Source of the DNA: Patescibacteria group bacterium
GTDB lineage: Bacteria > Patescibacteriota > Minisyncoccia > Phycocordibacterales > UBA9973
Assembly: GCA_038061755.1 (NCBI GenBank)
Contig: JBBTYN010000004.1
Span: forward strand, 84,373-129,972
Reading direction: 5' to 3'
DNA: 45,600 nt
The translations under genes were made by a program, and so were the position numbers. The number at the start of each line of letters is the position of its first letter. Position 1 is the stretch's first letter. Shown here in pieces: positions 1,050-3,777 of this stretch. The notes under the pieces were generated by a model that saw only the letters and a program-made list of their open reading frames with translations, was not told where the DNA came from and did not search any database.

Positions 1050-3056
1050 TTATTCCAAAATTTTTCTTAAAATGTCTTCTGGAACTTCTGGTGTTTTAGA
1101 TTTCTGAGATATGGGAGTAGCTGACTGACTAGCCTTTATCAAATCTTTTAATTTATTCATATCTTCTGAACTGGCAGCTCTATCTGCGTTTACTCGCTTT
1201 ATTGGAACTTCATTTTTAATTTTATCTTTCAAAGAGTCAAGAGAAATTGTTTCTGGAATTGGCTTTGCTTCAACTACTTTATTTAAAATATTTTTTAATG
1301 CCGAAGTATCTCTATTTATCGGATGAATAGGCTTAGGCCTAACTGGAACTGGAACTTGTTTAGTAAAAATTTTTTTTATAGACTTAAATACACTAGGTTT
1401 ACCCGCCACATAGGAGAGCCTGTTTGTCGAAGTAAAATCTTTTTCTCCTCTTTCTTGATATCTATGCTCTTCTTCTATATTTCCATTTTTTTGTTTAAAT
1501 TCTATACCTAAATCAGCTAATGGTTTATAAAACTTAGATTCATCATATTTAATTTGATCCTGTCCTTTTTTTTCTATTTTTACTTCCCCAGATTTTATTT
1601 TTGCAATACATTCTTTACAATAAACTGCTCGTCCCGGCTCTGGCTTAAATGGTACAGTCGCTTCTTTTTTACAAAGAGAACAAATAACCGGAAATTTTTC
1701 CATACTTCCACTGCCAGTGTCCGTTTCATTGCCAAGGGACATTCCACTCCAGTTATTAATCTCCCGTTCCACCACTTCTTTTGATTTACAATAAAGTTCA
1801 CGAGAAGATTTTATTACTTCTTCTTCTACTTTCTTATCACCTGACTTTACCATTGGAGGTAAGGTCTTAGCGGAAAATGGACGGGACGTTACGCCATCGA
1901 TCATTAACTTTAAATAAATTTTATAGTTCGGCAAATTTACAATATCAGAAGGAGTAAATTCTGGGTCAAATTCTTTTTCTAAAAAGTCTGCATCGTCAGA
2001 ACCAACTCTAAAAACTATCATTGTACCAACGTTGCCAAAGACCGCATCCCGAACGGCCGAGCTTTTATCCGCCACTAGCTGAGCAGTGTATTGGTGAGCC
2101 ACCGTCAGATTCAGTCTGTACTTTCTAGCTTCAGACAAAATACCGGCAAAAGCATCAGTTACAAAGTTTTGAAATTCATCCACATAAAGATAAAAGTCCT
2201 TGCGATGGTCTTCAGGAATACGCACGCGTTCCATAGCAGCCAGTTGAATTTTGGTAATAATCATCCCTCCCAAGAGTCCAGAATTATCTTCCCCAATACG
2301 TCCCTTAGAAACATTCACGAGAAAAATTTTCCCATCGTTCATAATATCAAAAATATTGATGGTACTCTTAGATTGACCAACGACATTGCGAATAATAGAA
2401 GTAGAAAGAAATTGTCCGACTTTATTTTGGATCGGGGCAATCGCTTCATTGCGAAATTTATCCTGCCAAGCTTCATACTCATGTACCCAGAAAGCTTTTA
2501 TCACGGGATCTTTTAAATTGGTAATTATTTTCTGACGATAATCTTTATCTACAAGCATTCTAGGAATTCCTAGGAGCGTCGTCCCTGGAGTATCCAGTAA
2601 GGCTAAAATACAATTATTTAAAATATATTCCATTCGTGCGCTCCAAGCATTCGCCCAGATTTTGGTAAAAATACCCATCAATCCAGACGCCACTAAATGT
2701 TTATATTGTGGGTCAATCAATTCTAAAACATTAAAACCGATATGATAATCCGCATCCGCTGGATTAAAATAAACTACATCTTTCATTCGGTGGGACGGAA
2801 TAGCTGAAAGAACTGCTTCGACAAGTTCTCCGTGCGGGTCAACGACACAAACCCCTTCGCCGTTTTGAATATTCTGAAAAATCATATTGAACATCAAAAC
2901 CGATTTACCAGTACCAGATTTTCCGAGAATATAAACATGCTGACGCCTGTCTTTGCGCTTAATGCCAAAAAGCTGATTTTTATCGCGAAAAGTCGTCAAC
3001 CCTAGGTAAGTAACGTCTTTATTTATAGGTATTTCTGGGAGTTCAATGTGGGTCAT
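1050..3056 (-). CDS. VirD4/TraD-like ATPase with CxxC-x17-CxxC zinc-finger domain
   Basis: Walker A GKSGTGKS, Walker B LYVDEFQNF, SEARKY, AHQY; C-terminal CSLC-x17-CKEC containing VPFKP. Confidence 0.85.
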   Translation of the reverse strand: MTHIELPEIPINKDVTYLGLTTFRDKNQLFGIKRKDRRQHVYILGKSGTGKSVLMFNMIFQNIQNGEGVCVVDPHGELVEAVLSAIPSHRMKDVVYFNPADADYHIGFNVLELIDPQYKHLVASGLMGIFTKIWANAWSARMEYILNNCILALLDTPGTTLLGIPRMLVDKDYRQKIITNLKDPVIKAFWVHEYEAWQDKFRNEAIAPIQNKVGQFLSTSIIRNVVGQSKSTINIFDIMNDGKIFLVNVSKGRIGEDNSGLLGGMIITKIQLAAMERVRIPEDHRKDFYLYVDEFQNFVTDAFAGILSEARKYRLNLTVAHQYTAQLVADKSSAVRDAVFGNVGTMIVFRVGSDDADFLEKEFDPEFTPSDIVNLPNYKIYLKLMIDGVTSRPFSAKTLPPMVKSGDKKVEEEVIKSSRELYCKSKEVVEREINNWSGMSLGNETDTGSGSMEKFPVICSLCKKEATVPFKPEPGRAVYCKECIAKIKSGEVKIEKKGQDQIKYDESKFYKPLADLGIEFKQKNGNIEEEHRYQERGEKDFTSTNRLSYVAGKPSVFKSIKKIFTKQVPVPVRPKPIHPINRDTSALKNILNKVVEAKPIPETISLDSLKDKIKNEVPIKRVNADRAASSEDMNKLKDLIKASQSATPISQKSKTPEVPEDILRKILE

Positions 3057-3099
3057 ATAGATATTTTATAACAAAACAGCTCTTTTTGCTAATTTTTAC

Positions 3100-3128
3100 T
3101 TGACTTTTTTCTAACACTATAATATACT
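3100..3128 (+). promoter_or_regulatory. sigma70-type promoter facing the mazF 3' end
   Basis: TTGACT (3100-3105), 17-nt spacer, TATACT (3123-3128). Confidence 0.7.
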
Positions 3129-3134
3129 TATTGA

Positions 3135-3192
3135 GTAAATGCTTTCCTTGTCGAAAGCTCCGAGAAACCCCCGCAAGGGGGTTTCGTTTTTT
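3135..3192 (+). ncRNA. candidate ~55-nt small RNA (hairpin plus intrinsic terminator) convergent with mazF
   Basis: Follows the consensus promoter. GCTTTC-cttgtc-GAAAGC hairpin (3141-3158), then GAAACCCCC-GCAA-GGGGGTTTC and a T-tract. Confidence 0.5.
3164..3192 (+). terminator. intrinsic terminator
   Basis: 9-bp perfect stem, GCAA tetraloop, GTTTTTT tail on the + strand only. Confidence 0.75.
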
Positions 3193-3577
3193 ATATAATC
3201 TTTCCTAGTTTTATTTTTATTTCATTTAATTCTCCATTTTCTATTTTCCCCATAAGTCGCAATATCCTTTTTGCATCAAAAAGTCTAACTTGCGACAAAA
3301 TTACAGTTGAACCTGGAAAAGAAATCAATTTGTGATAATATTTACCTTCCTTGTTTTCATTAGATGTTAAAGGAACTCCTAAAAATATATTATTGTTGAA
3401 TTTTCTAACTATTAAAATAGGCCGCTCAAAACTAGAATGCTTGCCATCCTCTTCGTCTCCAATATTTTTACCAATAGAAGCAAGCCAAATATCTCCTTTA
3501 TGAAAATAAACTCGTCCTCCGTTTGAAAGTTCTTTTTTCTTGATATTCCAATTATCAAAATCCTGATTCATAATCAT
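3191..3577 (-). CDS. PemK/MazF-family endoribonuclease toxin
   Basis: GDIWLASIGKNIGDEEDGK...RPILIV...GVPLTS...LSQVRLFD. Start revised to 3577, where the ATG overlaps the upstream TGA (ATGA); 3571 is an alternative. Confidence 0.85.
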   Translation of the reverse strand: MIMNQDFDNWNIKKKELSNGGRVYFHKGDIWLASIGKNIGDEEDGKHSSFERPILIVRKFNNNIFLGVPLTSNENKEGKYYHKLISFPGSTVILSQVRLFDAKRILRLMGKIENGELNEIKIKLGKII

Positions 3578-3777
3578 ACGCATTTGCAATTTCGTTCCGC
3601 TTCTCCGCACTTCTGGCATTTTACCTGCATCATTGATTTTTCTGCACATTTGTTAAAATGCAAGGGGTAAAAAAAAACGGCAGTGTATCCGCATTTGGGA
3701 CATTTGAATCCATCTCCATCTCCGTGACAAACGCCGCAATGTTTTGAAGATAAATGTGTTGCTGGGTTATAAATCAT
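3574..3777 (-). CDS. Cys-rich, probably zinc-binding microprotein (67 aa)
   Basis: Three CxxC motifs (CGVC, CPKC, CQKC) plus CKC; ATGA overlap with mazF. Confidence 0.65.
   Translation of the reverse strand: MIYNPATHLSSKHCGVCHGDGDGFKCPKCGYTAVFFYPLHFNKCAEKSMMQVKCQKCGEAERNCKCV

Follow-up and report, generated by a model that had tools for sequence, protein, structure and literature searches.

A convergent small-RNA gene beside solitary mazF toxin genes of Patescibacteria, a candidate RNA antitoxin

Within a 45,600-nt stretch of a Patescibacteria genome (GenBank assembly GCA_038061755.1, contig JBBTYN010000004.1, positions 84,373 to 129,972; hereafter the window) we describe a solitary mazF toxin gene and, tail to tail with it, a putative small-RNA gene with its own promoter and terminator. 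The arrangement recurs throughout the phylum, and a dedicated small-RNA gene coupled to solo mazF is supported by comparison of the related loci. We consider it probable that the RNA is a negative regulator or an antitoxin of mazF, by whichever route it acts; the antitoxin reading is based on the strict phylum-wide one-to-one linkage of the two genes, on the lack of a protein partner and on the pattern of losses. A first-pass annotation, made from the letters of the window, had suggested a non-canonical toxin-antitoxin (TA) system in which a single tail-to-tail RNA inhibits the toxin or pairs with its 3′ untranslated region (UTR). Its dedicated small-RNA gene coupled to a solo MazF was borne out by the comparisons; neutralisation of MazF, binding of the protein by RNA and the cleavage specificity of MazF are points that we infer.

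The elements of the putative RNA gene are present as that annotation had read them: a TTGACT-17-TATACT promoter that faces the 3′ end of mazF and matches 10 of 12 consensus positions, a 6-bp hairpin, and a 9-bp GCAA-capped terminator whose T-tract overlaps the mazF stop codon (Table 1). Because the spacing between the –10 box and hairpin 1 is fixed in the family, transcription is predicted to start at 3134/3135, giving an RNA of ~56 nt with two hairpins. The 66-nt stretch that contains it folds with –24.3 kcal/mol (RNAfold; z = –4.2), and none of 200 shuffled sequences did as well. A scan of the locality returned 7 promoter-like sites against 7.1 in shuffled sequences and 1 terminator against 0.8, so local promoter and terminator matches on their own are at chance level for AT-rich DNA. 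Therefore the case rests on comparison.

Table 1. Features at and around the mazF locus of the window
Feature	Position	Strand	Details
TrwB/VirD4-like coupling ATPase with treble-clef zinc finger	1050..3056	-	PF10412 E 5e-12, PF23477 E 1e-11
Predicted promoter of the small RNA	3100..3128	+	–35 TTGACT 3100-3105, 17-nt spacer, –10 TATACT 3123-3128
Predicted single-stranded 5′ leader GUAAAU	3135..3140	+	ACAAAY in most relatives
Predicted hairpin 1	3141..3158	+	6-bp stem GCUUUC/GAAAGC (3141-3146 with 3153-3158), 6-nt loop; RNAfold and family comparison
Linker UCCGA	3159..3163	+	with the next two bases, type-A motif CCGAGA
Predicted hairpin 2, intrinsic terminator	3164..3192	+	9 bp, GCAA loop 3164-3185; T-tract 3187-3192
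mazF, PemK/MazF family endoribonuclease toxin	3191..3577	-	stop TAA 3191-3193; PF02452
Zinc-ribbon open reading frame, 67 aa, Cys-rich (CxxC)	3574..3777	-	overlaps mazF start by ATGA; weak zinc-ribbon Pfam matches

The genome that holds the window (G000; 576,619 bases in 16 contigs, 95% complete) encodes three MazF paralogues, and all three carry a convergent element: behind each, a promoter (TTGACA/T-16/17-TATACT) is accompanied by a short hairpin, a GC-rich one with a GNRA loop, and a T-tract. At G000:C3, the hairpin 2 behind the paralogue is 95% identical to that of the window. The strict motif TTGAC[AT]-N16-18-TATA[AC]T occurs 15 times on both strands of the whole 577-kb genome, three of these occurrences lying tail to tail with the mazF paralogues. 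Among 201 genomes of the same order, a MazF search found the family in 55, often in multiple copies and in up to 8, and the element stands beside 33 of the 33 order copies examined, the window included; 30 of the 32 further copies were recognised at first, and L010 and L031, in which the element overlaps the 3′ end of the open reading frame (ORF), were added. At least 592 relatives of the MazF protein, collected with an alignment of a 12-protein subset, were found among species-representative genomes. The best 80 of these (at least 592) loci were examined; apart from a few generic or odd labels, all come from metagenome-assembled genomes of Patescibacteria/candidate phyla radiation. The element was seen in 66 of the 80 with a strict regular expression and in 78 by eye, and a covariance model added L113, making 79; L126 is the only one of the 80 without it.

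Searching in the opposite direction, from RNA to toxin, gave a similar picture. Covariance-model searching of 151 order genomes yielded 24 matches (E <= 1e-3), 20 of which adjoin a convergent MazF match, the remaining four being stand-alone RNA genes with their own terminators. A 16-nt core motif, sought with at most one mismatch in 401 genomes of the phylum, gave 19 matches against 12 for a reversed control pattern; eight of the 19 have the full promoter and hairpins, and seven of those eight face a MazF gene. Overall, MazF was found without the RNA in 1 of 113 cases and the RNA without MazF in 5 of 32, an asymmetric loss pattern that fits a toxin with its antitoxin. Two genomes, G100 (98% complete) and G112 (87% complete), have a stand-alone RNA and no MazF detectable by profile search. 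The stand-alone genes (L136, L137, L138, L139 and L042) consist of promoter, both hairpins, A-rich linker and terminator, with no mazF. We also noted duplications of the RNA unit between promoter and mazF at L051 (~1500-1573, a second pair of hairpins 1 and 2) and L094 (~1890-1967, a second hairpin-2-like stem); they recall the repeat arrays of type III antitoxins.

The shared features are those expected of a transcribed and folded RNA. A promoter matching at least 9 of 12 consensus positions lies at the expected place in 77 of 106 elements and at 5 of 297 control positions; with a threshold of at least 10 of 12 the figures are 63/106 and 0/297. The distance from the end of the –10 box to hairpin 1 is exactly 12 nt in 76 of 102 elements, the window among them, a spacing which puts the predicted start at the A of the leader ACAAAY. 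In 89 distinct sequences the leader is conserved as A87 C77 A88 A85 A85 Y89 (86–99%). Hairpin 1 is mostly GGC-UUCG-GCC, with the compensatory variants GCC/GGC, GAC/GUC and UCC/GGA, while hairpin 2 has many different stem sequences closed by GCAA, GUAA, GAAA or UUCG loops. In an alignment fitted to this structure, standard pairs fill 99.1% of 705 cells compared with 82.6% in shuffles and 45–70% in slid controls; 114 cells are compensatory against 30 in shuffles, a level reached by 0 of 500 shuffles, and 8 of 10 pairs have changed on both sides. The conserved promoter and covarying stems that the first-pass annotation proposed to look for downstream of homologous mazF genes are thus clearly there. 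Seventeen cells hold G-U pairs and six are unpaired. We place the RNA on the strand convergent to mazF because the tetraloops exist only on that strand, because G-U cells outnumber non-pairs, and because the promoter and the T-tracts are there.

Alignments that mix subtypes (MAFFT, A1 and A2) misalign hairpin 2, and RNAalifold recovers only hairpin 1 from them. The covariance model R1 was trained on 13 type-B sequences (see below) and recovers 25 of the 33 order elements at E <= 1; in the genome search it found nothing in G000. No Rfam 15 family matched the window at gathering score, positions 3050-3260 at E <= 10 or ten related loci at E <= 1, the best chance-level match being to terminator-like leaders (E 0.14). 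Judged by its sequence, the RNA is a new family for annotation with no Rfam 15 counterpart.

The elements fall into subtypes that differ in how they end, the counts resting on our own simple hairpin scanner. A terminator on the RNA strand was detected in 97 of 109 elements, and the scan found none in the other 12. Type B accounts for 82 of the 109. Here hairpin 2 is followed by an A-rich linker and a third hairpin of ~12 bp, whose 5′ arm contains the complement of the mazF stop codon and whose 3′ arm, in most loci, reaches 19–23 nt into the coding sequence before a T-tract. In 58 of the 82 a U-tract, the U-rich complement of the linker, also follows this hairpin on the mazF side, and the third hairpin is a predicted bidirectional terminator shared by both convergent transcripts. 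The transcripts would overlap by a median of ~41 nt, with the leader, hairpin 1 and hairpin 2 all outside the overlap. Type A comprises 15 of the 109 elements, including the window and its paralogue L005, and in it hairpin 2 is itself the terminator. Its T-tract touches the mazF stop codon, GAGA after (U)CC is invariant in 14 of 14 elements, and hairpin 2 covaries, 5 of its 10 predicted pairs showing compensatory changes in 14 sequences. No terminator or U-tract was found on the mazF side (0/15), and therefore mazF transcripts would read through the RNA gene. In the window the RNA overlaps the coding sequence by only 2 nt, and by more only if mazF is read through. The single RNA of ~55 nt suggested at the outset thus describes the subtype of the window; most family members are ~85–95 nt long, with a terminator that lies across the stop codon.

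The toxin is a genuine MazF, as first annotated. The window protein matches PF02452 with E 3.2e-10 and 40.6 bits (cut-off 23.1), and all three paralogues of the genome exceed the cut-off; its likely start is the ATG at 3569-3571 (MNQDFDNWN...). Searches of PDB sequences, NCBIfam and PADLOC gave no informative match. The AlphaFold2 model (mean predicted local distance difference test 85.2, predicted template modelling (TM) score 0.78) has as its top Foldseek matches (probability 1.00, TM 0.6–0.75) MazF-mt1 and the MazF structures of S. aureus, B. subtilis and E. coli. It also has an extra N-terminal helix, residues 2–17, that is absent from canonical MazF. W8, K12, G34, N36, G38, E40, G43, R50, P51, Q94 and R102 are invariant in an alignment of 30 sequences (A3), and the PLT motif (PLT/PIT/PLS) is largely kept; we take the RP arginine and the PLT threonine to correspond to the catalytic R25 and T48 of B. 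subtilis MazF. The fold and motifs are, as far as model and alignment can tell, intact, and the toxin looks active as an endoribonuclease, although proteins of the family have diverged to 32–49% identity. In the MazF tree the core type-B clade has support of 99/93 and the window copy pairs with L005 (95/86); the deep branches are not resolved and therefore we claim no order of events.

A Shine-Dalgarno sequence is absent from many mazF genes (8/159 rows, not de-duplicated), and a –10-like (TATAAT-like) box lies 4–10 nt before the mazF ATG in 41 of 159 rows, also not de-duplicated, against 27 of 636 control positions. Upstream regions of this apparently leaderless type were seen in the related loci L055–L100. 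The pattern suggests that toxin mRNAs are leaderless and weakly expressed while facing a strong RNA promoter.

No conserved protein antitoxin is encoded upstream of mazF. Among 44 small upstream ORFs none is MazE/AbrB-like and one is CopG-like, and the upstream neighbours, which vary by locus (rpoC, atpG, ftsA, dnaX, an ABC ATPase, or none), are unrelated housekeeping genes. Upstream of the other two paralogues of G000 lie the end of rpoC and a gene for a 438-aa surface protein, with no small ORF at either. The first-pass annotation was right to call mazF an orphan with no MazE/AbrB nearby; it overlooked the 67-aa zinc-ribbon ORF that overlaps the mazF start in the window.

We propose that the 0.5-kb unit is a two-gene module of toxin and RNA antitoxin that has spread through Patescibacteria. 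The near-consensus promoter facing the 3′ end of mazF would make an abundant small RNA composed of the single-stranded ACAAAY, a UUCG-capped hairpin and a GNRA-capped hairpin. This conserved 5′ module may be what MazF recognises, either as a pseudo-substrate or as a mimic of its product, and the RNA would occupy the RNA groove of the MazF dimer and keep the enzyme silent. Many MazF enzymes are known to cleave at sites with (U)ACA as their core. A transcript starting at ACAAAY would equal the 3′ product left by a U^ACA-cutting MazF, a mimic that two tetraloop hairpins might hold in place. A second layer of control may come from the 3′ part of the RNA; being complementary to the mazF transcript at its 3′ end, this part could act by antisense pairing and transcription interference, in type B through the shared terminator across the stop codon and in type A if mazF is read through.

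Several features speak for direct recognition: the 5′ module lies outside the transcript overlap, the leader is near-invariant despite the drift of the protein, RNA units are duplicated in places, ToxN offers a precedent, and the module has no extra complementarity to the start region of mazF. The last point comes from a candidate that we rejected, in which the 5′ module would pair with the region around the mazF start: the duplex energy of –11.7 kcal/mol did not improve on the –12.1 kcal/mol of shuffled sequence (130 rows, not de-duplicated). We tentatively prefer a dual mode, in which the main neutralising step is direct binding, to purely antisense action. That direct binding of MazF forms a main part of the regulation is likewise a tentative view, held with slightly less assurance, and it is a possibility, though a rather doubtful one, that the module represents a new, phylum-wide type of TA system in which a single RNA of ~45–90 nt directly neutralises a genuine MazF as a product or pseudo-substrate mimic.

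A number of observations weigh against this proposal. The same 5′ module stands beside all paralogues of a genome, so that direct binding would leave the copies without insulation from one another, a situation that fits a generic role of the module (stability, or binding of a host factor) better. A shared terminator placed precisely over the stop codon is characteristic of antisense (type I) loci, and the genome encodes RNase III. The predicted fold has two hairpins and no apparent pseudoknot, unlike solved type III antitoxins. The covariation counts come from 94 model matches among related sequences in an alignment fitted to the structure, which favours that structure. The terminator of the stand-alone gene L136 resembles the leftover 3′ end of a deleted mazF and not a selected stand-alone gene. 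The RNA of the window is itself atypical, with the leader GUAAAU and a 6-bp hairpin 1, and R1 with its type-B training does not detect it; it is placed in the family by its position and promoter spacing, by the type-A alignment A8 and by comparison with its paralogue L005. Finally, transcription of the RNA is predicted from sequence. A comparison with the contigs of one RNA run and three DNA runs showed contigs identical to the window over 2797-3219 (423 nt) and 3544-3756 in an aquifer metatranscriptome (run X9), with a depth of 2–3 and with no information on strand or transcript ends; they may derive from carried-over DNA, and part of the region is present in DNA from that study too.

The strongest competitor, which we judge somewhat unlikely, is a purely cis-antisense RNA of type I kind that pairs with the 3′ end of mazF mRNA and acts through RNase III cleavage or promoter interference, its 5′ hairpins serving only to stabilise the RNA or to recruit a host factor. 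Type A would then pair with a read-through 3′ UTR, and type B through the shared terminator hairpin and the A/U-rich linker. The convergent genes, the reach of the mostly bidirectional type-B terminator into the coding sequence and the resulting overlap are what such a mechanism calls for, RNase III is available, and variable 3′ parts would insulate paralogues that share a 5′ module; the anatomy resembles that of B. subtilis txpA/RatA, bsrG/SR4 and yonT/SR6 (PMC6562991). However, the best-conserved part of the RNA (leader and hairpins 1 and 2) stays outside the type-B overlap, while in type A, which lacks a mazF-side terminator at all 15 elements, overlap needs putative read-through. Closed UUCG and GNRA tetraloops are poor sites for initiating loop-loop contacts. 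The type I toxins known so far are, with few exceptions, small membrane peptides, and under antisense control alone nothing would inhibit a stable 127-aa RNase once leaky translation had produced it. An RNA that is not an antitoxin at all is unlikely. It could be a substrate, a sensor of ACA cutting, a cofactor or part of an RNA-protein complex, with MazF held in check by its own N-terminal helix as a tethered inhibitor like EzeT, or by an unlinked protein as MrpC does for MazF-mx. The extra helix of the model, with its invariant W8 and K12, would suit the former, a near-invariant ACAAAY could equally be a cleavage site, and there is precedent both for a solitary MazF whose protein antitoxin is unlinked and for toxins that carry an antitoxin domain acting in cis (PMC4803016). 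Against this, the one-to-one linkage and the fixed geometry across the phylum point to mutual dependence, and the losses run as an antitoxin would predict, the RNA surviving without MazF and the converse almost never occurring.

The two remaining explanations can be given very little weight. The zinc-ribbon protein could be a translationally coupled antitoxin in type II order, confined to the window locus; the ATGA overlap and its small size would suit this, and it belongs to a real gene family. Yet of 200 other genomes of the order only 2 have a homologue, and the better and sole clear one, 50% identical, is in G093, which lacks a MazF match. No such ORF precedes the other 32 mazF copies of the order or the two same-genome paralogues, and Pfam and NCBIfam gave no antitoxin match. 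A run of nine A/T at 3670-3678 inside the ORF is one base shorter in the contig of a related strain, which would shift the frame. In our reading the zinc-ribbon ORF is a neighbour specific to the window locus and lies outside the conserved module. It is just as improbable that there is no dedicated RNA gene, the hairpins being a mazF terminator or a DNA repeat and the promoter fortuitous. The chance-level local counts of promoters and terminators would agree with this, but the promoter keeps its distance in most of 106 elements and is rare at control positions, T-tracts stand on the RNA strand, tetraloops and G-U pairs are strand-specific, and in the window no U-tract follows hairpin 2 on the mazF strand. 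If not terminated, a mazF transcript there would continue across the RNA gene and enter the TrwB/VirD4-like gene (1050-3056).

Two other ideas about the RNA were tried and dropped. It does not appear to encode a small peptide: the ATG in AAAUGG is ACG or GUG in about one third of the relatives, and the varying length of hairpin 2 shifts the frame. Nor is it a convincing mimic of the 3′ end of 16S rRNA (ACAA, a helix 45-like hairpin and CCUCC) when compared with the 16S 3′ end of G101, no 16S gene being assembled in the genome of the window. The 3′ end of the G101 gene (L135:~770-900, G101:C1) reads GTCGTAACAAGG...GGAT followed by TTATTTC, and by eye has no CCTCC anti-Shine-Dalgarno sequence at the usual place.

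Two DNA metagenome runs contain contigs of other organisms, at high depth, whose only match to the window is the 34-nt terminator (3158-3191). These contigs continue upstream as TGCTATACT...TATAAATGGCTTCGGC, that is, with a promoter and hairpin 1 of the family type, and therefore point to further family members in the same habitats. In G000 a 190-aa NYN-domain RNase (PF01936, E 2.9e-20) is encoded outside the window at L140:870-1546 (G000:C14:4169-4845). Its gene is faced by a convergent TTGACT-N17-TATACT promoter, a short two-hairpin RNA and a terminator T-tract that abuts the stop codon, a design like that at mazF with a different RNA sequence; the pair may be a second RNase/small-RNA module. 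Beside the RNA locus, the window has two TrwB/VirD4-like P-loop ATPase genes (3-341 and 1050-3056, both on the minus strand) with similar N-termini, ~0.7 kb apart; a DUF5674 gene (637-993) and a 96-aa ORF lie between them, and the complete ATPase is the one at 1050-3056.

To our knowledge, MazF, a textbook type II toxin, has always been described with a protein antidote, and we know of almost no regulatory RNAs from ultra-small groundwater bacteria. A full-text search of the literature found no published MazF with an RNA antitoxin and no description of an RNA of the window type. If the RNA is an antitoxin, it would join the toxin of type II to the anatomy of type I and the logic of type III. 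It would further provide a very small, portable pair of RNase and RNA inhibitor, and a view of gene regulation, and possibly of phage defence, in uncultured ultra-small groundwater bacteria. Should direct neutralisation be true, no RNA antitoxin would have been described before for the classical MazF family, and the module, with up to 8 copies in genomes of 0.6–0.7 Mb, could be a main device of Patescibacteria for stress response or abortive infection.

Compared with known systems, the RNA differs from the pemK RNA motif, whose covariance model does not match the window element and which presumably lies upstream of pemK in Firmicutes. That motif exists as an Rfam family of structured RNA associated with pemK/mazF (PMC11507696). 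In MazF-mx of Myxococcus xanthus, a solitary mazF without an adjacent mazE has MrpC as its antitoxin (PMC4803016); unlike this case of one gene and an unlinked protein, the system described here has a linked RNA gene beside hundreds of mazF copies. With type II mazEF/pemIK it has in common the fold of the toxin, its catalytic RP and T motifs and SQIR..D..R at the C-terminus, whereas no mazE or pemI was found upstream at any locus examined. The toxins differ from canonical MazF in their additional N-terminal helix and in a longer loop connecting strands one and two, and many copies are seemingly leaderless.

The predicted convergent transcripts with their 3′ overlap, the terminator shared in type B, the strong promoter of the putative antitoxin and the availability of RNase III recall type I loci. 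The par locus of E. faecalis, with fst RNA I and RNA II, is a convergent, 3′-overlapping example. The toxin is unlike those of type I in being a soluble RNase of 126–128 aa and not a small hydrophobic peptide, and the overlap is short, leaves out the best-conserved part of the RNA and in the window subtype extends over 2 nt of coding sequence. In B. subtilis the txpA/RatA, bsrG/SR4 and yonT/SR6 pairs interact at their 3′ ends, and the terminator stem-loop of SR4 suffices for binding (PMC6562991). Like the type III systems ToxIN, CptIN and TenpIN/AbiQ, the module joins an RNase of the MazF/Kid fold to a small structured RNA with no protein antitoxin and, if the RNA binds MazF, its active site would likewise be occluded by RNA. 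ToxN-type toxins have the MazF/Kid fold and are inhibited by RNA, and their antitoxin is a tandem repeat array upstream of the toxin in one operon with a terminator in between (PMC5086642). Unlike these, the toxin here is a genuine PF02452 MazF and not a ToxN, CptN or TenpN (Pfam PemK_toxin only; no PADLOC match), and the RNA, one unit under a promoter of its own, lies downstream and convergent and has no evident pseudoknot. Taken together, the toxin is that of type II and the anatomy that of type I, and the logic may be that of type III.

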